Shown here one piece after another: positions 10,596 through 59,045 of a DNA stretch of 64,000 nt. Under the pieces are notes generated by a model. That model did no database searches. It was not told the origin of the DNA and saw only the letters and a program-made list of their open reading frames with translations. Source of the stretch: a virus. The DNA lies in the IMG/VR virus record IMGVR_UViG_3300009788_000005, positions 21,759 to 85,758 of that record. One strand, given 5' to 3'. Each line of letters starts with the position of its first letter. Positions within the stretch are counted from its first letter, which is position 1. Made by a program: the position numbers and the translations under genes.

Positions 10596-11201
10596 TTAGA
10601 TACTACTAATATCTATAGTTTCTACTAAGGGCTTTTCCAACTTAAGTATATACAAATCCTCAGGACAATCAGTAGCCCCAGGATCATACATTTTACCCGG
10701 ATACTCTATAGCCGTAACTCTTCTAGCTAACCACCTATTAAACCTAATACGGACCTTCTTTACCTTATCCTTAAGGATATACTTAGGAATCACAGTAATT
10801 AATACTCCTCCAGGCTGTAGTAAGTATCTGTAATTATAAACAATATGATGTATAATAAGATCTGTTTCAAAGGGAGGATTTAATATCAAGCAATCAAACA
10901 TATCTATAAAATCTATACTATAATTTACTAAACTAAAACAGTTATGATATATAGAAATATAGCCTCCCGTTAAACTAGCCTCCCTCAAAATCTCAAACAC
11001 ATCAGTATTATACTCTATACCCCATACAATCAAATCTCCATAATCCTTATCTGGATCAAGACTGTCTACGTAAGTCTTTAATAACCTACCATACCCTGCA
11101 CTAGTATCTCCCACACATTTAAACCTACGATCACCCAACATACACACCATCAACTTAGCCACCTCTATAGGAGTTTCTTTAATATTTACTGTCTTTTCCA
11201 T
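10596..11201 (-). CDS. N6-adenine DNA methyltransferase-like protein
   Basis: SAM-binding DTSAGYG, GIE, catalytic LNPPF, LLQPGG; start set at ATG 11201 (MEKTVN) because the longer start overlaps a terminator hairpin. Confidence 0.8.
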   Translation of the reverse strand: MEKTVNIKETPIEVAKLMVCMLGDRRFKCVGDTSAGYGRLLKTYVDSLDPDKDYGDLIVWGIEYNTDVFEILREASLTGGYISIYHNCFSLVNYSIDFIDMFDCLILNPPFETDLIIHHIVYNYRYLLQPGGVLITVIPKYILKDKVKKVRIRFNRWLARRVTAIEYPGKMYDPGATDCPEDLYILKLEKPLVETIDISSI

Positions 11202-11231
11202 AACACAATATAACTGTAACCCCATAAATAA

Positions 11232-11257
11232 CAAAAGCCCCAACATTGGGGCTTTTG
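11232..11257 (-). terminator. Intrinsic terminator downstream of the ParB-like gene
   Basis: CAAAAGCCCCAA-CA-TTGGGGCTTTTG perfect inverted repeat with T/A tracts on both sides. Confidence 0.75.
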
Positions 11258-11289
11258 CAGGAAAAAAATAAACGTGTGAGAAGTATATT

Positions 11290-12441
11290 TTAACTTACTC
11301 CCCCTCCATCAGGATTTTCCTGAAAGTTTGCAGCCATTATAAGGGCATGGGCCATTTCTTCCGCTGAGTGTGACTGCACTTGAGCATCCATCATAACCTG
11401 CACAATATCATCTACAAGTCCCCCTTTAAACCGCTTACCGAAAGGAACATCTTTCTTTTGCCTTTCTACCGTAGATTGTTCATCCTGGATCATATTTACC
11501 AGATTACCGCACTCCTCTGCAAAGCTGTAACGCTTTTTAGTTGTAGGGGTTGCAGCAGCTTCTACATGCTTAGCAGTAACTTTAATTTTACCTTCTCCAG
11601 CAGCTTTTTCCTGAGCAACCTTAGCAATCTCAGCAGCAGATTGTTTTTCTCCTTCTTCCTGAGCAAGTACAGCAGCCTTAGAGGCAGCAGCCAAACTCAA
11701 CCAACCCTCCTCAATACCTTTAAGCAATTTCTTATCCCGTCCTGCACGGAGATAATAATGTACTGCCGTCCTACCCATACCTACCTGCTTAGCAATATCC
11801 ACTACAGACATACCAAGATCATCTTCCAACTTAGCCAAGTTCACACACTTCTGATAATTTGACCACTGCTCATGAGTATTATTACTTACTTGCCGGAGTA
11901 ATAGCATTGCTTCCCCCTCAGGACCTACAGGCTTTTCTACAATCTGTACCGCAATCAAATTCTTATCCGCATCACTTCCAGGCCAAACAGCCATCTTAAG
12001 TATCACACCTGCCTCATCCTTAATAGTCCCCTTCATGATTTCATCAAAGCCATACAGACGACGGAAACCTTCAACAAGCTTAAGCTTAAACTGATTATTA
12101 CCCCTGGCTTTTATATCCGTAACATAAGCCTCTACGGCAGTAGTCTGACCATTAACCCCCAAAGATCGTACCCACTCAGTAGGAGTAGTTTTCTTTACCT
12201 CATTCTTACCTCCTCTTGGATTATCATTATAAGATACGATAATCTGAGCGCGAGGTATCAAAATAATCATACCCGGCTGAGGTTTTTCAGGTAAACCTAC
12301 AGTAAGTAATCCCACAATAGGGGTATCCTTCTTAGCGGGAGATTCTTTGGCAGCTCCATTACCTTTGGAATTCTTAGCAATATTCTTTGCTACACCCTTA
12401 GTAGCGGGTTTTTCTTTTGTAGATGTTTCAACTTTTACCAT
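11290..12441 (-). CDS. parB: ParB/Noc-family CTPase-HTH DNA-binding protein
   Basis: NPR (box I), SLGVNG, LVEGFRRL (GxRR arginine patch), SNN, HTH GMSVVDIAKQVGMGRTAVHYYL; no parA in window. Confidence 0.85.
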   Translation of the reverse strand: MVKVETSTKEKPATKGVAKNIAKNSKGNGAAKESPAKKDTPIVGLLTVGLPEKPQPGMIILIPRAQIIVSYNDNPRGGKNEVKKTTPTEWVRSLGVNGQTTAVEAYVTDIKARGNNQFKLKLVEGFRRLYGFDEIMKGTIKDEAGVILKMAVWPGSDADKNLIAVQIVEKPVGPEGEAMLLLRQVSNNTHEQWSNYQKCVNLAKLEDDLGMSVVDIAKQVGMGRTAVHYYLRAGRDKKLLKGIEEGWLSLAAASKAAVLAQEEGEKQSAAEIAKVAQEKAAGEGKIKVTAKHVEAAATPTTKKRYSFAEECGNLVNMIQDEQSTVERQKKDVPFGKRFKGGLVDDIVQVMMDAQVQSHSAEEMAHALIMAANFQENPDGGGVS

Positions 12442-12486
12442 GTTGGATTATATTTGTTTTTGTTATTTTTAATACAACTTATAATC

Positions 12487-12518
12487 CAAAGGTAAGGATT
12501 ACAGTTTTTATAAACAAG
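12487..12518 (-). promoter_or_regulatory. Bacteroidota sigma70-type promoter for the ParB-like gene
   Basis: Minus-strand TTG...TACCTTTG (-33 and -7 TAnnTTTG elements). Confidence 0.65.
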
Positions 12519-12552
12519 GATTTTTCAAAAAAGCGTAAAATTTTTACACTCT

Positions 12553-14328
12553 CTAAGCATCTTCTAACTGCTCCTCAGAAAACTGATAACCTAAAGAACC
12601 CTTTTTCTTTTTACCTGTAGGGGTATTTTCTCCTGATGACTGCTCCTCCCAAAATTCAGGACAATTATCCATATGTATTTGCCTATCTATAGGACTAGCA
12701 GTCATTATATCATAATCAATATGCAAATATTCTACTACATGATCCCCACCATCTCTATCTCTATCCATCCATAATACTAATCTCCTATACCCCTTTTCTT
12801 TTTCTTCTTCAGTAGCTAAAGATACTACAGCACACTCAACATCATAACCTATATTCCCCGTACCGGCTATCTTTAAATTTCTAAGTCTAAATTTCTCATC
12901 CGTTAGTTTTTCATAATCCTTAGGAGCCTCTATCATTAACATATAGATGTTATGCCTATCCCGTAATTCTTTCAGATCTGCGTAATTTTCTCGTATGGCC
13001 TGCCAATAATTCAGATCCCTATTATCAGATTTTAAATGCTGTCCCCAATCTATAATAACTACTTTGGGTCTACTATCGTCACTGAAAAAATTAGTTGGGT
13101 CTTCCTTCAACTGAACTATCAACTTATCTAGTTTACCGGGAGTACAGGATTTAATATACTCTAACCTAATATCCCCTCCTGATTCTGCCTTAATTTTTTC
13201 TAAAGTATCATTCAACTTATCCAACAAAGACACATATACCTTATCAGGATCAAAATATTTATCTCCCTTGTTACTCAACTCTCTCCAATCATCGTACCCC
13301 TGAGGATTTTTCTTTATAGCTTCATAAATTCTAACTACAGTCTTCCAATTATTTACTTGCTTTTTCTTCCCCTCTATAACTACTTCTTTCTTCCCGTCTT
13401 TATAAGATCTAATCCTATACACTTTCTCCCCCTGCAAATATATTCTATCTTCCTCATACTGCTTAACTGATTTTATTATATGAGAAGTATCTACCCATAC
13501 CCCACTATAAAACCACTCCTTAGGAGCCTGTAACAAAGACTGATAAAACCTCCTCTCCATCTTAAGTTTACCATTCTCCAAATCAGCAAATAAAACATCA
13601 GCCCCCTGCTTAACCAAATCTACTGCTACATTCTGACTTAATCCCGACTTAAAGGACTTAGGCCCCGCTATAACAATCGTAATACCTCTAAAGTAAAGTA
13701 CTATACTTTCATAACAAGTCTTTAACCCTTCTAACTGTTCTAACTCCTCCAGGCTATGTACCTTATCAAATATATAAACCCCCTCCGACTCCTCATTAAG
13801 TATATCAGAATTAAGCTTATCTATAAATAACTTTCTTTCTCTGTAGCTCCACTTTATAACCTCTATAGGATCTACATCATCTAACCTTAATTTCTCTGCC
13901 TCATCCCTAATCAATTTAGATAAAAAACAATGTACAATAAATCCTATTAATTGTGCTATAGTGTAATCCTCATCTTCAGGAGGCTTAAATAAAGCCCTCT
14001 CAAAATTACGTAGATCCTGCTTATCCTCTGAGGAACTTAATTTTAACCATTTTTGAAAAGGATTACTATCTTTTTTTATCTGCCGATATACTTCCTTACT
14101 GGGAAGATCTGTATACTCTCCATAATAAGTACCTAATAACTCTACAATTCTTTGGGCAGCAGATGAACTAAAAGTTTCCTTAAATACCGTAGCATCTACC
14201 TCTTTAAAATACTTAAAAAGACGTAAGCCCAACTGCTGAACTTTGGGCTTAATTTGTCCGTCCGGCAAACGATCTTTCCAGAGTAACCGGGAAATCATTT
14301 TTAGCTGTACCTCAGGGGTATACTTCAT
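12553..14328 (-). CDS. dnaB: DnaB-like replicative helicase with internal insertion
   Basis: Walker A IAGPKSFKS, ADLENG, Walker B VIIDW, IAGTGNIGYD, DRD. Confidence 0.8.
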   Translation of the reverse strand: MKYTPEVQLKMISRLLWKDRLPDGQIKPKVQQLGLRLFKYFKEVDATVFKETFSSSAAQRIVELLGTYYGEYTDLPSKEVYRQIKKDSNPFQKWLKLSSSEDKQDLRNFERALFKPPEDEDYTIAQLIGFIVHCFLSKLIRDEAEKLRLDDVDPIEVIKWSYRERKLFIDKLNSDILNEESEGVYIFDKVHSLEELEQLEGLKTCYESIVLYFRGITIVIAGPKSFKSGLSQNVAVDLVKQGADVLFADLENGKLKMERRFYQSLLQAPKEWFYSGVWVDTSHIIKSVKQYEEDRIYLQGEKVYRIRSYKDGKKEVVIEGKKKQVNNWKTVVRIYEAIKKNPQGYDDWRELSNKGDKYFDPDKVYVSLLDKLNDTLEKIKAESGGDIRLEYIKSCTPGKLDKLIVQLKEDPTNFFSDDSRPKVVIIDWGQHLKSDNRDLNYWQAIRENYADLKELRDRHNIYMLMIEAPKDYEKLTDEKFRLRNLKIAGTGNIGYDVECAVVSLATEEEKEKGYRRLVLWMDRDRDGGDHVVEYLHIDYDIMTASPIDRQIHMDNCPEFWEEQSSGENTPTGKKKKGSLGYQFSEEQLEDA

Positions 14329-22858: not shown

Positions 22859-25800
22859 TTAAAATTCTGATTTTCTTACTTGCCTGTCTAATTTTAATTG
22901 TTGCTTTTTCTGCTCTATAAGAGAAAGGGTTAGTTCTTGTTCATCTATAGCAGTAATTACTTTCTCTACACTATCCTTAACCCCCTGTATATCTTGACCT
23001 AAATTATCAAATCCTCTACGTAATTCCGCAAAAGCTACAGATGTGGATGCCTCACTTATACCTGTAGGTACTGCTCCTCCCGTTTGAAACTTATACTTAG
23101 GAGCTTTAACTGGTACTCTAGGTATATTGGCTACTACCCCTGATCCTGAAGATTTAACCATACCAAATAAACTAGACATATCCCCATAAGGCTTACCCTG
23201 CTTTCTCCTGATTCCTTGGTGATTCATCCACGATAATAAAGGATAAAATAATTCCGTAGACCACCTATTATTCTCATACTCTCCTCCCTCTACTTCTATA
23301 GGTATTCCTCCCCTACTATGCCTAGGTCCTACGTGCATCCCCCCATATCCTTTTCTTCGTTTAGGTGGTCTAGTAGCACTTCTAGCTGAGGTTCTACCTC
23401 TTATGGGGGTAGGTCCCCCATCAGCAAACAATAAGCCCGTATCTCCCCCCAATTCAAAACTTGTAGCACTAGCTGTTAATGATCTAATACTAGCTATACC
23501 CGCAGCTACCGCCGCTATAATAGAAATAATAGCGGCTATATTTCCTGGGAAAGGTATCTTAGCCCCCTCTGATACAGCCTTAATATTATTACTAAGAGTG
23601 ACAATATTATTTCTAATTATCTGAGCATTATCTATAACAGCTTGTATAGCCTGTATTTTCTTCTCAAAAGCTATAGCTGCTTCTCTTCTTTGCTCTGCCT
23701 TTTTTATAGCTGCTGCTACTCTCTTTTCTTCGTCTGCCCTCCTCTTATTTTCAGCCGCAACTTGAGCATTTCTCTGAGTATTTAAAGATGCTAATAAACT
23801 AGCCTCAGTTTCAGCATCTAATCCCTGCTTTAATATATTACGCTCCCTAGCTGCAAACTCCTGTTCCAACTGAGTTAACTGATTCTCATGCCCCTCTTGT
23901 CTACGGGCATCTCTTTCATTTATTAAAGCAATCTCCTCATCTACCCCAAACTCTAATATCTCTCTAATAGATCCCGCAAAATTAACAAGACTATCTAAAG
24001 CCTGCCTTTGAAATTCTAAAGTTTTTTCAATCTCCTCCCTCTTTCTTTCCTCTTGCTTAGTAACTTCATCTATCTCACCGTCCCGTATATCTAATAATAT
24101 TGCTATTCTTTCCTGCTCCAGTTTTAAAGTTTCCTCAGCACTTAACCCCACTATCTTTAACTGATCCTCTACAAACTGTAACGAAGCATCTAATCTTTTT
24201 TTATCAGCCTCTAACTCTATTTCAAATTTCTCATCCTCAATATCCTCTATCCGATCTACAGTTAATTGCCCAGCAATATCTATAGCATTTAATTCTGCTA
24301 GTCTTGCTGCCTCTATTCCTTTAAGTCTCTCCTGCAATACTAAATCTAATGCTTCTGATTCTGCCTCTATTCTTTTTTGTGCTGCACCCCCTCTAGCTTT
24401 AACTACTCTTTCATCAAACTCAAGATTTAATTTTGAAAAAAGTAAAGCCCTTTCCTCCTCTGTAACTTGTAGTATAGTGGATTCGTCTACTCCCTGCTGT
24501 ATTAAAGCTTGTCTTTCTTTCTCAAACCCTTCTAACTTAATATTAAGTCTACCTAATGCCTGCGCTCTTAATACCTCTAATCCTTCGATAGATTTCCTTC
24601 CCCCTGCCTCCTCAACATCAGATAATTCTCTCTCTTTTGCTATTCTCTTATTAAGAGAATCTAAAGTCTTAGCTAACTGATCTGCCTTTTTACTATCTGC
24701 CTTAGTGTTAGATACTATTCTTTTAGTATTAGTAGTTAGCACCCCAGTCAAACTACCGTAAGTCTGATTAATCTGCTGTAATATTTCCCTACTTTTACCT
24801 ACACTAGTAGTTAATAATCCTAACTCTCGTTGCTGTACTATAGTAGAGTTGGTAGTTACTCTCTGCTGTACTGCTAACTCAAAGGAAGCTTTGCCTGCAC
24901 CCCCAAACTGAGTACTTACATCATCCCACTGAGATCCTAACCTCTCAGCAGTAACTTCAGCATCAAATGCCTCCCTGGATTGTGTAGATAGACTTGTAGC
25001 TAAATTTATAGAAGCTTTCTGAGAATCGCTTAATCCATTTTCAAAATCATCTACAGCACCTACATACGAATTAAGCACTCCCTGGGAAGCTGTAAAATTT
25101 TTACTAAGCTCAACATTAGCATTCTTTAATTCATTAACAGTCTTAATAGATCTATTAAGAGATTGTACAAATATATCTGTTATCTCTGTATCCTGATCTA
25201 TATCACCTAATCTAGCTATCTCAGAGTTAACAGCATCTATGTCAGTTCCTATACCTAATGTTTGAGTCTCTAAAGCATCTCTTAAATCGTTAAAATTTCC
25301 AATAGTATTTTTTACCCCCTGCCCTAAAACATCATCTCCAAAAACTCCACCTAATCCTCTTACGCTAATTGTAGCACCTTTAGCAGCATCAGATACTAAG
25401 TCAGTTCTACCAGATAACTCAGCAAACCTATTTATTAAGGCATCAATAGGATCTCTTAAACCATCTAACTCCTTAGCAGAATTCCTTAGCTGTATTCCAG
25501 ATAACCCAGTAACTTCCTGTAGCTCTTTGGATACTTGGAGTTGATCCTTCAAAACATCTCCCAACTCTTCCTCTATAGCCTGCTTCTTTAACTTGGCTAT
25601 TAAATTAGCTTCTATAGCCAAGTTAACCGCCAATTGGGCAGATTCAATTTCCTTGAGATTACTTGACTCCGTTAAAAGATTAGGAAGATACTCCCCATAC
25701 TGATCATTGATAGCATCAATAAGATTAGATCTCTCAGCAGACCCCTCATTAGCATTCTTTAAAGATTCAAATAATAAATCTACCTGAGCAACTTCCGTAC

Positions 25801-27715
25801 CTATTTGCTTTTCTGCCTCTTCCCTCCTCTTACCCAATCTACCTTCAAGCTTCTCTAATTCCGTTAACTCCTTTACAGCCCCAGACCCAGAAGAAGCTAA
25901 CGCAATAAGACCACCAACTAAAGCCCCTATACCTAAAGCTAATCCCACAGGATTAAATAACTTAGTTGCTGCATTTAAGGCTATCTGGGCTACTGTCTGT
26001 AATTGTATCTTACCCGTCAATAACCCCGTAACTACATTTAAAGCTTTTGTGGCTGTTTCCTGTAATACCAGCAACTTAAACCCTATAGAGTAAGCCGCAT
26101 TATTGGCTATAACAGAAAGTGTATTTAAGTTAAGGTTAAGCCTATTAGCTATTAAGCTGGCAGTATATACCCCTAATGCCGCCGATATAGCGCCAAACAA
26201 AGCAGGGAATTGCTGTATCAAATCTAACCCCCCACTAAGCACCCTAATAAATGCCGTAAACCCCTGTACTACGGTGCGTATAGCAGGCTCTAAAGTATCA
26301 AATATATTTAAAGCAAAAGCCTCTGTAGCTGATGAGGCAGTATCTAAATCTCCTCTTAAATCATCTCTAATAATTGCAGCCATTGCAGCAGCAGATCCGG
26401 CTGCATTTTCAAACTGAACCCCTAAATCTTCTATCTTATCAGCATTATCTATAAAAGTAGAAAAAGCTGCTACGGATCTTGTATCCGTTAATTCTAATAC
26501 CTCTCCCAAACTTGCGCCCTCATCTCTTAGAGTCCTAAGTACACCTATTAATTTCTCAGAGGTATTTATATTAGTACCGAAAGTCTTAGATAACTCACTT
26601 GTAGGATCAGCCAATTTTAATAAAATATTCCGTAAAGAAGTTCCCGCCCTAGAACCTTCTATTCCTACATCAGCTAACCCGGCTAGTAAAGAAGTAACCC
26701 CTTCTAAAGAAAATCCTAAAGTTTTTGCTACAGGTGCTACTGTCTTTATAGACTCCCTGAAAGTCTCAAGATTCAAAGATGACTTAATAAAAGAAACAGC
26801 CAATACATCGGTAACCCTCCTAGTCTGATCAGCATCTAATCCAAAAGCACGTAAAGTCTTAACAGCTACCGTACCTGCCTCAGCCAAATCCTCACCTGTA
26901 GCAGTAGCTAAATCTAACGTAGCCGCTGTAGCCTCTAGTATCTCATCCTGCCTAAATCCTAACTTGGTTAACGATATTTGTAAATTACCTACCTGGGTAG
27001 TAGTAAACTCTGTAGCCGCCCCCAAACTACGAGCATCATTTACAAGATTATCAATATCTCCCCCCTCATTAAGAGCCTTCAATGTTGATTGTATACGGGA
27101 AAAATCAGCCCCTAAATTTATGAGATTTCTAAACCCCCGGGTTACTTTAGATATTACAGCAGTAACCGCAAAAGCAGTTAAAAAGGTTTCTCCTACCTTC
27201 TTAAACGTGCTAATAATACCTTCCCCTATATTGGGGTAATTACCTACATTTCTTTGGAATCTACCACTAGCTGCCTCTGCCTCAACAAGCTCATTATTTA
27301 ATAGGGCTGACTGCTTAGATAATTCCTGAAACTCAGGATTAACCTGACCCTTTACGGTTTGTGCCGTATTATCTAATTCCCTACGTACCCCTACTAGCCT
27401 ATTCCTAAGATCATTAATACTACCAGCAGCAGCAGTACCCTGCCTTAATGACTTATTAAAATCTAATACCCTCTGTCTCCCTTGAGAGAATTGATTATTT
27501 AGATCCTTCTGTACTGAGGCTAATGTTTGAGTACCGTCTGTAGCCTCTCTTACTTCTTTATCTAAAGTATTATAAGCCTCGGTACCCTCAGCCGGTAGAG
27601 ACAGTAGAAGTCGCTGTAGCTCCTTCTGATGAAACACTAATTCCTGTACGGATAAACTTGCTGTATCCGTACCAAGAACTTTTATAGTATATGTTAACGT
27701 CTGAGTCTTACCCAC
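22859..27715 (-). CDS. Tail tape measure protein (TP901-family core)
   Basis: 1618 aa Ala-rich helical; RNVGNY, LGAATEFT, GIEGSRAGTSLRNI, HSRGGIPIEVEGGE. Confidence 0.95.
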   Translation of the reverse strand: MGKTQTLTYTIKVLGTDTASLSVQELVFHQKELQRLLLSLPAEGTEAYNTLDKEVREATDGTQTLASVQKDLNNQFSQGRQRVLDFNKSLRQGTAAAGSINDLRNRLVGVRRELDNTAQTVKGQVNPEFQELSKQSALLNNELVEAEAASGRFQRNVGNYPNIGEGIISTFKKVGETFLTAFAVTAVISKVTRGFRNLINLGADFSRIQSTLKALNEGGDIDNLVNDARSLGAATEFTTTQVGNLQISLTKLGFRQDEILEATAATLDLATATGEDLAEAGTVAVKTLRAFGLDADQTRRVTDVLAVSFIKSSLNLETFRESIKTVAPVAKTLGFSLEGVTSLLAGLADVGIEGSRAGTSLRNILLKLADPTSELSKTFGTNINTSEKLIGVLRTLRDEGASLGEVLELTDTRSVAAFSTFIDNADKIEDLGVQFENAAGSAAAMAAIIRDDLRGDLDTASSATEAFALNIFDTLEPAIRTVVQGFTAFIRVLSGGLDLIQQFPALFGAISAALGVYTASLIANRLNLNLNTLSVIANNAAYSIGFKLLVLQETATKALNVVTGLLTGKIQLQTVAQIALNAATKLFNPVGLALGIGALVGGLIALASSGSGAVKELTELEKLEGRLGKRREEAEKQIGTEVAQVDLLFESLKNANEGSAERSNLIDAINDQYGEYLPNLLTESSNLKEIESAQLAVNLAIEANLIAKLKKQAIEEELGDVLKDQLQVSKELQEVTGLSGIQLRNSAKELDGLRDPIDALINRFAELSGRTDLVSDAAKGATISVRGLGGVFGDDVLGQGVKNTIGNFNDLRDALETQTLGIGTDIDAVNSEIARLGDIDQDTEITDIFVQSLNRSIKTVNELKNANVELSKNFTASQGVLNSYVGAVDDFENGLSDSQKASINLATSLSTQSREAFDAEVTAERLGSQWDDVSTQFGGAGKASFELAVQQRVTTNSTIVQQRELGLLTTSVGKSREILQQINQTYGSLTGVLTTNTKRIVSNTKADSKKADQLAKTLDSLNKRIAKERELSDVEEAGGRKSIEGLEVLRAQALGRLNIKLEGFEKERQALIQQGVDESTILQVTEEERALLFSKLNLEFDERVVKARGGAAQKRIEAESEALDLVLQERLKGIEAARLAELNAIDIAGQLTVDRIEDIEDEKFEIELEADKKRLDASLQFVEDQLKIVGLSAEETLKLEQERIAILLDIRDGEIDEVTKQEERKREEIEKTLEFQRQALDSLVNFAGSIREILEFGVDEEIALINERDARRQEGHENQLTQLEQEFAARERNILKQGLDAETEASLLASLNTQRNAQVAAENKRRADEEKRVAAAIKKAEQRREAAIAFEKKIQAIQAVIDNAQIIRNNIVTLSNNIKAVSEGAKIPFPGNIAAIISIIAAVAAGIASIRSLTASATSFELGGDTGLLFADGGPTPIRGRTSARSATRPPKRRKGYGGMHVGPRHSRGGIPIEVEGGEYENNRWSTELFYPLLSWMNHQGIRRKQGKPYGDMSSLFGMVKSSGSGVVANIPRVPVKAPKYKFQTGGAVPTGISEASTSVAFAELRRGFDNLGQDIQGVKDSVEKVITAIDEQELTLSLIEQKKQQLKLDRQVRKSEF

Positions 27716-39368: not shown

Positions 39369-39484
39369 ACCTACTTGTAAAATTTTTACACATCCTTATT
39401 AATCTCAATGTACACATAAACAACCCCTCCAACAAGACTAATGCCGGCCCAGGCATGTTACCAGAATAAGAAGTTACAAAGTAT

Positions 39485-40363
39485 TTACCGTAATGGTTTA
39501 GATCTAACCCCTACTAGATAAGACTCTACTAACTGTAACTCATTACATTCCTGGTAAGCATAGCAATCTCTATCATGATGCCAAATAAGATTTACACCTT
39601 CTTTAATAGATTTTATATACTTAACCTCTGAATCAGTATACCTAGTTAAAGTAAATACCTGATTCATTTTAATAAATCCATACTGTAGTAACAGGGTCCT
39701 GAAGTAACTACCAGACATAATACTAAGTCCAAACCACTCTCCTACTTTTCGGGCTGATAAAGGTCTTTGCTTGATTGCTCCAGTTTTAGCAGTCTTTCCC
39801 TTTATCCTATCCTTATAGGATTGTACTTTATAACTATAGATTAGTCTAGCATATACACAACCCGCTTTAAGAGTCGTTACAGAAGTTAATAAGCATGGAT
39901 TTAGTTTAGCCGTTTGTATCCTGGTTCTATCTTTACCTCCGCATAACTTACTTATCTTCTTCCATCCTCTTACAAACCCCTCAGTAATCCACCCCATCCT
40001 AATCAACTTTTTTAAATGACTATTAGCAGTTTGCCTGGTATATGATAAACTATCTGATAACTCTGTAGTAGTTACTTCATACCTCCCATCCCCCGCTACA
40101 GTACAGTAGTATTTTAAATACAGAAAGGTCCTCAGTAGTGATACCTGCCCTGATCCTATTATATAGGTAATAACCGGCAGAGGGATATTAATAGTATGAC
40201 TTAACCCGAACTTATTAGACTTAGTAATAGCCTCCTTTACGGGTAAAGGGATACACTCAGTAACTACAGTTTCAAAGTTAGATATCATACTCTCAAGGGA
40301 CCTAGCAAAGGTATCATACAGAGTATGAATTACAAACACTCCAAAACCAGTAAGGAGAGACAA
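39485..40363 (-). CDS. Winged-HTH DNA-binding protein (replication-initiator-like); start probably ATG 40288
   Basis: TTTELSDSLSYTRQTANSHLKKLIRMGWI and a second HTH-like LSARKVGEWFGLS. Confidence 0.6.
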   Translation of the reverse strand: MSLLTGFGVFVIHTLYDTFARSLESMISNFETVVTECIPLPVKEAITKSNKFGLSHTINIPLPVITYIIGSGQVSLLRTFLYLKYYCTVAGDGRYEVTTTELSDSLSYTRQTANSHLKKLIRMGWITEGFVRGWKKISKLCGGKDRTRIQTAKLNPCLLTSVTTLKAGCVYARLIYSYKVQSYKDRIKGKTAKTGAIKQRPLSARKVGEWFGLSIMSGSYFRTLLLQYGFIKMNQVFTLTRYTDSEVKYIKSIKEGVNLIWHHDRDCYAYQECNELQLVESYLVGVRSKPLR

Positions 40364-42385: not shown

Positions 42386-42457
42386 AGTGAGGTAAAGGTA
42401 ATGTTTTTAAATGGATTATCCAAGACTGTAAAAATTTTACACCCTATACCCAAATAA

Positions 42458-42489
42458 TTAGGATTTCTAATAACCTTACCTTATCTTTG
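42458..42489 (+). promoter_or_regulatory. Extended strong promoter (32 bp)
   Basis: TTAGGATTTCTAATAACCTTACCTTATCTTTG; 31/32 identical to the minus-strand copy at 50525-50556. Confidence 0.75.
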
Positions 42490-50524: not shown

Positions 50525-50556
50525 CAAATATAAGGTAAGGTTATTAGAAATCCTAA
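50525..50556 (-). promoter_or_regulatory. Extended strong promoter (32 bp)
   Basis: TTAGGATTTCTAATAACCTTACCTTATATTTG. Confidence 0.75.
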
Positions 50557-50594
50557 TAAGGTTGTAAAATTTTTACACCTCCCTCAATCAAATA

Positions 50595-58350: not shown

Positions 58351-58382
58351 CAAAGATAAGGTAAGGTTTTGATATATCCTAA
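58351..58382 (-). promoter_or_regulatory. Extended strong promoter (32 bp)
   Basis: TTAGGATATATCAAAACCTTACCTTATCTTTG. Confidence 0.75.
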
Positions 58383-58415
58383 TAGTGGTGTAAAAATTTT
58401 ACACCTAGTTACCCA

Positions 58416-58978: not shown

Positions 58979-59010
58979 CAAAGGTAAGGTAATGTTTTAT
59001 AAGATCCTAA
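58979..59010 (-). promoter_or_regulatory. Extended strong promoter driving the tRNA-like RNA
   Basis: TTAGGATCTTATAAAACATTACCTTACCTTTG. Confidence 0.75.
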
Positions 59011-59045
59011 TGCCCGTGTAAAATTTTTACACATTATCCCAAAAT

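Follow-up and report, generated by a model that had tools for sequence, protein, structure and literature searches.

A 64,000-nucleotide stretch of the genome of an uncultured phage (hereafter the window) encodes a ParB-like protein of 383 amino acids (aa), and the genome carries 47 copies of a short perfect palindrome. The window comprises bases 21759–85758 of the 85,758-bp IMG/VR record IMGVR_UViG_3300009788_000005, which has direct terminal repeats and is rated 100% complete. The protein, a divergent relative of ParB, Noc, and KorB, is encoded on the minus strand (11290–12441, ATG start) and is almost certainly a member of the ParB superfamily. The best single explanation of the data, to which we assign a probability of about 0.45, is that the protein works on the palindrome lattice in the manner of KorB or Noc. 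This pairing had been proposed in an earlier annotation made from the letters of the window without database searches (the sequence-only reading). Its premises, a ParB-superfamily protein with a helix-turn-helix (HTH), no ParA, a monocistronic unit, and an upstream palindrome, held up in the present analysis, whereas the pairing itself is a hypothesis.

Identification of a divergent ParB-superfamily protein

Profile searches connected the protein to ParB. PHROG 1033, annotated as "ParB-like partition protein," matched across residues 60–314 with an E value of 5e-12. A phmmer search against 1.84 billion representative proteins returned 11 matches at E ≤ 1e-3, with only one close relative; the nearest, P0002, is 55% identical. 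Eight of the 11 matches were scanned against Pfam, the three left out having matched through short repeated stretches, and HTH_ParB was above its cut-off in five of the eight, with a weak ParB_N match in two. The alignment profiles A2 and A3 matched the structures of Spo0J (1vz0; 4e-18 and 9e-42, respectively) and KorB (8qa8; 3e-9 and 1e-16) as well as Myxococcus ParB and Noc structures. When the single protein was searched against the PDB with phmmer, only a chance match was obtained.

The fold predicted from the single sequence was of no use (predicted local distance difference test score, pLDDT, of 39.7). An AlphaFold2 (AF2) model from a 15-sequence alignment reached a pLDDT of 74.3, although the A3 alignment, which served for both the model and the profiles, includes more canonical ParB-like sequences and may pull the model toward the ParB fold. 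Foldseek placed ParB, Noc, and KorB in the top ranks with a probability of 1.00. In VIA-align, the model gave Z 12.5 with KorB (8qa9_A; 198 residues aligned, 4.4 Å), Z 12.1 with Caulobacter ParB (6t1f_D), and Z 11.1 with Noc (7nfu_B). The nearest viral structure models were phage "Spo0J/ParB HTH" proteins, such as that of Vibrio phage VpV262.

The sequence-only reading had described a complete ParB architecture. Family models bore this out only in part: PHROG 1033 matched, whereas the Pfam and TIGR family models missed the protein at their cut-offs. The fold supported both domains. All the motifs that it had listed were located: NPR at N74-P75-R76 (within YNDNPRGGK), GFRR at G125-F126-R127-R128, and SNN at S186-N187-N188, with the HTH at approximately residues 205–236. 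The lysine/alanine-rich tail was also found, with 10 Lys and 6 Ala within the first 45 residues. This tail (residues 1–45; 12307–12441, minus strand like all parts of the gene) is predicted to be disordered, with a pLDDT below 50 at residues 1–44, and is not conserved in P0002, whose tail is acidic.

The tail is followed by a ParB/Srx-type N-terminal domain of the nucleoside triphosphate (NTP)-binding type at residues ~57–192 (11866–12273), which contains the motifs NPRGGK, EGFRRLYG, and SNNTHEQW and an insertion of ~25 aa past the GxxR helix. When compared alone, this domain matched PadC (6ryk_B; Z 9.8, 99 residues aligned, 3.2 Å, model residues 53–195), ParB (7bm8_A; Z 9.2, residues 57–192), and sulfiredoxin (6ky4; Z 7.7). 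A ParB-type HTH DNA-binding domain follows at residues ~193–304 (11530–11865), as delimited by VIA-align and a weak Pfam HTH_ParB match. Alone, it matched Noc's DNA-binding domain (DBD) with its binding site (DBD-NBS, 6y93_A; Z 9.2, residues 192–303), the KorB DBD–operator complex (1r71_C; Z 8.0, residues 178–301), and SopB (3mkz; Z 6.8). The recognition helix is GRTAVHYYLRAG in the phage protein and TRELVYYYLKAG in P0002. The C-terminal region (residues ~305–383; 11293–11529) is helical, with helices at 307–325, 342–356, and 360–371 and a pLDDT of ~35–77. It is conserved in P0002, has no Pfam match, and is assumed to serve dimerization; a predicted complex of two copies of residues 296–383 scored 0.01, which is no evidence either way.

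The nucleotide motifs were compared by using the printed alignments of wild-type Myxococcus ParB and its Q52A and E93A mutants (7bnr, 7o0n) together with the family alignment. NPRGGK of the phage protein corresponds to NPxQPR of ParB, EGFRRLYG to GERRWRA, and SNNTHEQW to ENLQRxDL. Across the 15 aligned sequences, G98, G125, R128, and L231 are invariant, so that the GxxR phosphate motif is kept in 15/15 sequences (G125 and R128).

The sequence-only reading had noted that no ParA is encoded in the window. This held for the complete 85,758-bp genome, in which the ParA families PF13614 and PF01656 gave 0 matches each (E ≤ 1), while the controls of this search were positive in 14/14 genomes. Tubulin (PF00091) and StbA/ParM (PF06406) likewise gave 0 matches in the complete genome. 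Furthermore, the ParA-binding motif, for which PMC12704722 gives the pattern (L/F/I)G(K/R)G(L/F/I), was absent by regular expression from the protein and 10 relatives. The protein is not a canonical partition ParB, because defining features (a TIGR00180 score above the cut-off, a ParA, and the ParA-binding motif) were tested for and are missing.

Searches for related phages returned little. No match to the protein was found by tblastn among cultured phages at E ≤ 1e-5 or at E ≤ 1, and the P0005 query likewise gave none; megablast of 20 kb of the window also gave none. Searches for the loci of relatives with the protein, A1, P0003, and the terminase in viral contigs returned none, nor did searches with A1 in metagenome and genome contigs. 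No fused forms were found among the longer proteins, which is weak evidence.

A lattice of identical palindromes across the genome

The 13-mer GTAAAAWTTTTAC occurs in 47 exact copies in the genome, compared with 0 copies of the reversed control word. Exact 15-mers (TGTAAAAWTTTTACA) make up 44 of the 47 copies, and the consensus is TGTAAAA-W-TTTTACA. By word count and spacing test, 32 exact copies form a candidate binding-site lattice without strand preference in the window (988–61743). The sequence-only reading had estimated approximately 30 sites, and 35 matches at ≤1 mismatch were counted in the window versus 0.42 expected. No highly repeated 12-mer family other than the palindrome and the promoter module described below was present.

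Only five near copies were found, and isolated half-sites outside full sites numbered 23, compared with ~37 half-sites expected in all. Read on the plus strand, 21 copies have a central A and 26 a central T, although 129 of 137 ORFs lie on one strand. As RNA, the palindrome forms a weak hairpin (−1.8 and −2.8 kcal/mol, z −0.6), and 49 and 47 of 200 shuffles fold at least as well. The few near copies, the lack of a half-site excess, the A/T center, and the weak hairpin are in keeping with a symmetric dimer that reads duplex DNA, and they agree poorly with an RNA structure.

The copies are evenly spaced. The coefficient of variation (CV) of the spacing was 0.59, whereas uniform placement gave a mean of 0.98 and reached a value as low in a fraction of 0.0001 of 20,000 simulations. 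With gene boundaries drawn at random, the mean CV was 1.12, and 0/20,000 draws reached the observed value. The largest site-free gap is 4.6 kb. With regard to the crude map of open reading frames (ORFs), 37 of the 47 copies lie between ORF calls, 8 at the extreme ends of ORF calls, and 2 deep inside genes. Three contexts recur, namely, upstream of a strong promoter module, just past a TTTG-type box and so inside a short leader, and in promoter-less operon spacers.

The two copies deep inside genes, at window 25092–25104 and genome 20785–20797, lie in the 4.9-kb tape-measure gene and a 3.2-kb gene and divide what would be the longest site-free stretches.

Other roles of the palindrome were considered and set aside. 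Its perfect symmetry and lack of orientation speak against a sigma-factor promoter, targets of restriction or methylation are not typically over-represented 15-mers, and 47 dispersed copies argue against a pac site, cos site, or origin.

In a scan of IMG/VR for the 15-mer, a single copy per record was present among the matches listed. The 17-mer GTGTAAAAWTTTTACAG occurred in 24 stretches on 24 contigs, and the 19 of these 24 records that were searched whole had exactly one copy each. Thus, no second lattice of the same word was found in IMG/VR, although the window's own record is possibly outside those collections. The promoter-module pattern had five matches in metagenome contigs, none with the palindrome, and blastn/tblastx showed these to share a 28-nucleotide (nt) chance match or nothing.

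Promoters adjoining the palindrome

The strong promoter module consists of TTAGGAW-N9-CMTTACC followed by TTATCTTTGG, a TAnnTTTG −7 box, and occurs seven times in the genome. A palindrome is positioned upstream of 7/7 modules, at 5–7 nt in five and at 17 nt in two, on either strand. In the window, palindrome plus module extend over 50525–50576 (minus strand, TTAGGAT-N9-CCTTACC; module alone 50525–50556), 58351–58402 (module alone 58351–58382), 58979–59030 (module alone 58979–59010), and 42428–42489 (plus strand; module alone 42458–42489). The modules outside the window are at genome positions 474, 1159, and 18440, the last on the plus strand. The modules look like a set of early promoters.

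Most modules lead into an almost identical leader of ~20 nt whose last letters are GATTATG. The genes that they drive are small genes at both genome ends, together with a tRNA-like RNA.

The ParB-like gene is supported as a monocistronic transcription unit of its own. As the sequence-only reading had it, the gene has a terminator: an intrinsic one was found directly past the stop codon (11231–11258, minus strand), with a 12-pair stem (6 G–C) followed by a T-run, and the RNA fold agrees with this hairpin. The claim of an own promoter was borne out in part. No sigma-70-type site precedes the gene, and a putative Bacteroidota-type promoter, TTG-N20-TACCTTTG, can be read from the letters at 12487–12517 (minus strand). 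The variant palindrome reported near 12534 is present at 12534–12548, with the 13-mer exact (12535–12547) and one mismatch in the 15-mer. The distance from this copy to the ATG is 93 nt and that to the TTG, also downstream of it, is 17 nt; the −7 box TAnnTTTG of the gene lies 40 nt past it. A private parS-like cluster of palindromes was not found near the ParB-like gene.

At this copy, the flanks extend the palindrome into a 12-pair hairpin (window 12525–12557, minus strand; −9.2 kcal/mol, z −4.05) followed by UUUUUU. The palindrome thus doubles as a terminator-like structure of the upstream DnaB-like helicase gene.

Directly downstream of the ParB-like gene, past the terminator, lies a putative N6-adenine DNA methyltransferase (10596–11246, minus strand). 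It contains the S-adenosylmethionine (SAM) motif DTSAGYG and the catalytic motif NPPF, has weak N6_Mtase and PHROG methyltransferase matches, and probably starts at an internal ATG (MEKTV...). Phage ParB-fold proteins are often fused to methyltransferases (PMC12704722).

Proposed pairing of the ParB-like protein with the palindrome

Several points favor the pairing. ParB-family dimers read palindromes of 13–16 bp, and the distance between palindrome and promoter module matches the 4–10 bp of KorB (PMC11790492). The even spacing and the copies in the longest genes are in keeping with loading of a protein at sites and spreading from them. A palindrome adjoins the promoter of the gene itself, and only one other Pfam-recognizable DNA-binding protein is encoded. 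Cluster O mycobacteriophages, compared below, likewise combine a palindrome array with a ParB-like protein in the absence of parAB (PMC4351075). In the Pfam scans of 119 further ORFs, the one clear DNA-binding protein was the winged HTH discussed below. The properties of the palindrome, which is present as exact full sites only and is free of orientation, support a DNA site bound by a dimer. Dispersed palindromic operators of which some lie a few base pairs upstream of promoters, as in the KorB system, were found here at the level of the DNA, and their occupancy by the protein is presumed.

According to the preferred reading, the protein would be a dimeric, site-specific DNA-binding protein that docks at the 15-bp palindromes. 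Once docked, it may close into an NTP-dependent clamp and spread over the 1–2 kb between sites. By analogy with KorB on plasmid RK2, it could act as a genome-wide regulator or coat, and it would control the seven strong early-type promoters with an adjoining site, plus its own promoter. Whereas the analysis establishes the fold, the family kinship, the lack of a ParA, and the statistics and geometry of the sites, we infer site binding by the protein, nucleotide binding, sliding, and the outcome. A wider proposal is doubtful. In it, a ParA-less switch of the ParB family and ~47 even loading sites would coat or patrol the chromosome of a lytic-type phage, amounting to KorB-like, plasmid-style control in a virulent phage that may time the shut-off of the early promoters and possibly shield or organize the replicating DNA, with the sites in gene spacers doubling as AT-rich leaders.

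The following observations, together with three of the points given below for a different reader, weigh against the preferred reading. The pairing of protein and palindrome itself rests on inference. In Pfam, the only match was HTH_ParB at residues 202–274, with 14.8 bits compared with a cut-off of 22.6 bits, and ParB_N (PF02195) matched neither the protein (E ≤ 1) nor the six frames of the genome (E ≤ 10). The TIGR00180 parB_part score of 13.5 bits was below the threshold of 58.45, and the composition of the A3 alignment noted above may have biased the model. Within the nucleotide motifs, R127 is variable and is replaced by Cys in P0002 (GFCR versus GFRR), and the positions of the catalytic residues Q52 and E93 of Myxococcus ParB hold G77 and F126. 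With regard to the sites, 45 of 47 are at gene boundaries, and an ATG follows 23 of the 47 copies by 2–12 nt, by exactly 4 nt in 10; this boundary and start-codon placement could be due to an ordinary factor of transcription or translation.

Cultured phages provided a further point of this kind. A P0012 search identified ParB-like genes in 228 cultured phages, of which one, Agrobacterium phage 7-7-1 (NC_019519.1, lytic), was examined. It has five copies of the 15-bp palindrome TACAAAT-N-ATTTGTA, at 27273, 32660, 35651, 37798, and 39108. A ParB-like gene is therefore present in this phage without a lattice, indicating that an orphan ParB does not imply one. All five copies belong to the early region, where they occupy short gaps between genes, and form a local operator set; one of them overlaps an annotated promoter. 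The phage encodes the ParB-like gp089 and the XRE regulator gp049. In a limited literature search, no paper was found in which an orphan ParB of a phage was shown to bind an array of sites across the genome.

The residues of the phage protein speak neither clearly for nor clearly against nucleotide use. The catalytic residues are replaced, yet the KorB motif is GARRYR, with Ala at the Glu position, and KorB hydrolyses CTP (PMC11790492). [quoted passage not shown]

The main rival, tentative in its turn but serious, is that the palindrome has another reader, which could be the winged HTH, an unrecognized phage protein, or a host HTH regulator that is exploited or titrated. In that case, the ParB-like protein could bind a small number of different sites, take part in replication or recombination, act together with the methyltransferase, or serve counter-defense. 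The putative methyltransferase (NPPF) adjoins the ParB-like gene, and fusions of the two kinds of protein are common in phages (PMC12704722). LexA-like repressors of Bacteroidetes bind 13-bp palindromes of the form xTAA-N5-TTAx, with CTAA-N5-TTAG and TTAC-AAATT-GTAA as sites, in a 4-5-4 layout like GTAA-AAWTT-TTAC of the palindrome (PMC8565304). The winged-HTH protein (292 aa; 39485–40363, minus strand) passes the Pfam cut-off for HTH_24 (23.8 bits, cut-off 21.9), with MarR_2, HTH_Crp_2, and HTH_36 below their cut-offs, and its Atlas neighbors are HTH_36/HTH_24 proteins of phages and Bacteroidota, a widespread family. In addition, the sites lie at promoters and ahead of start codons, as ordinary operators do, and the ~110 ORFs without a family assignment could hold the reader.

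However, the start of the winged-HTH gene has no nearby palindrome, the nearest copies being at 39377 and 42428. HTH_36-type proteins are often replication organizers, which also counts against the winged HTH as the reader. No XRE-type HTH was found in the six-frame search of the genome (HTH_3, zero matches), and XRE repressor, S24 peptidase, and sigma factor were absent from the ORFs scanned. All 15 positions of the site are conserved, the spacer included, and the even spacing and the copies within two long genes are unlike ordinary operators.

It is improbable that the palindrome acts on RNA, as a processing site, translation-initiation element, or translational operator, with the ParB-like protein unrelated to it. 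The start codons just downstream would suit this role, the stop codon of the preceding gene is provided by several copies, and almost all copies are located in spacers that are transcribed, the genome being read from one strand. However, the hairpin is weak, the sequence is invariant rather than co-varying, and the center on the coding strand is A or T about equally. Moreover, seven copies are upstream of promoters, two of these for the opposite strand, and two are deep in long genes. It is likewise improbable that this member of the ParB/Srx fold is an enzyme, such as a nuclease, kinase, or NTPase, or binds DNA non-specifically, with no defined operator and an HTH for general DNA contact. In its favor, the fold binds CTP, ATP, or GTP in many non-partition phage contexts (PMC12704722), the family models missed at their cut-offs, and sulfiredoxin and PadC are among the structural matches. 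However, the best matches span the N-terminal domain and the sequence-specific HTH together in KorB, ParB, and Noc, and the operator complexes 6y93 and 1r71 are matched by the DNA-binding domain on its own.

Genome and host context

The crude map contains 137 ORFs, of which 129 are on the minus strand, and the G+C content of the AT-rich window is 33–39%. The G/C skew is very strong and uniform, ranging from −0.18 to −0.45 in every 2-kb interval of the window, which matches a genome transcribed almost wholly from one strand. PHROG matches are those of a tailed phage: DNA polymerase, two helicases, primase, portal, head protease, tape measure, and large terminase. Integrase, XRE repressor, S24 peptidase, and sigma factor were absent from the 119 smaller ORFs scanned against Pfam, and the phage is lytic-looking.

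A type IX secretion C-terminal sorting domain (Por_Secre_tail, E 1e-5) was found among the scanned small ORFs; together with the TAnnTTTG promoter boxes, it points to a host of the Bacteroidota type. The small ORFs of the left arm (genome 1–17541) encode a circularly permuted YpsA SLOG-family protein (E 3.6e-37), a DUF7352 protein, and an HNH endonuclease, and those of the right arm (window 42512–63907) encode a PAS-domain protein (E 1.4e-5). A second methyltransferase match, of the D12 class, was also obtained among the small ORFs. Among sequencing runs, one DNA run, possibly from the source sample, contains the stretch, and no RNA run was listed with it.

Comparison with known systems

Known roles of clamps of the ParB family are the segregation of chromosomes and plasmids (ParB), nucleoid occlusion (Noc), and the silencing of plasmid genes (KorB). 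Orphan ParB-fold proteins are widespread in phages and were reported with no function given in a recent survey (PMC12704722), and genome-wide arrays of phage palindromes have been described without a known reader (PMC4351075). If it is true that the protein reads the lattice, these two observations would be joined. The genome would then provide a first model of the role that orphan ParB proteins play in virulent phages, and a sliding clamp that regulates or coats a whole genome could be put to the test in it.

The stoperators of Cluster A mycobacteriophages are similar in that many sites of one phage protein at gene junctions silence transcription (PMC9283540). Stoperators are asymmetric, oriented with transcription, and read by the monomeric immunity repressor of a temperate phage (PMC9283540). 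In contrast, the site described here is a perfect palindrome with either central base (A in 21, T in 26), and no integrase or repressor was found among the ORFs scanned.

Cluster O mycobacteriophages such as Corndog provide a closer likeness. They carry >30 invariant copies of the 17-bp palindrome TGTTCGG-N3-CCGAACA throughout the genome, mostly intergenic or near 5′ ends and without orientation (PMC4351075). They are non-temperate-looking and encode a protein with a ParB-like domain without parAB, and the authors predicted a dimeric binder (PMC4351075). The authors drew no link between the ParB-like protein and the palindrome (PMC4351075). Both the host phylum and the word differ from those of the present phage. 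Protein kinship was not detected by tblastn of the phage protein against cultured phages at E ≤ 1.

Noc of Bacillus subtilis (7ol9, 7nfu, 6y93) resembles the phage protein as an orphan member of the ParB family without ParA. It binds many palindromes dispersed over the whole chromosome. The structural match to 7nfu_B was Z 11.1, and the DNA-binding domain by itself reached Z 9.2. The two differ in that Noc has a membrane-targeting N-terminal helix and a cell-cycle role, without a shown counterpart in the phage. Furthermore, the Noc model TIGR04285 does not match the phage protein, and the phage sites are nearly all intergenic.

The system that we consider for the mechanism, KorB with its operator OB on plasmid RK2 (8qa8, 8qa9, 1r71), differs in several respects. 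RK2 reportedly has 12 operators, whereas the 86-kb phage genome has 47 sites, which mostly lie within operons beside start codons. KorB acts with the ParA partner IncC and the clamp-locking KorA, whereas the phage has no ParA match and no KorA-like candidate was identified in it. Sequence identity is ~14%, the Pfam KorB model does not match the phage protein, and the replicon is a lytic-looking phage rather than a plasmid, with site binding presumed. On the other side, KorB is the best structural match to the phage protein (Z 12.5 over 198 residues). KorB binds dispersed palindromic operators, some 4–10 bp upstream of promoters and others distant (PMC11790492), and in the phage the palindrome lies 5–7 nt upstream of five promoter modules and 17 nt upstream of two.

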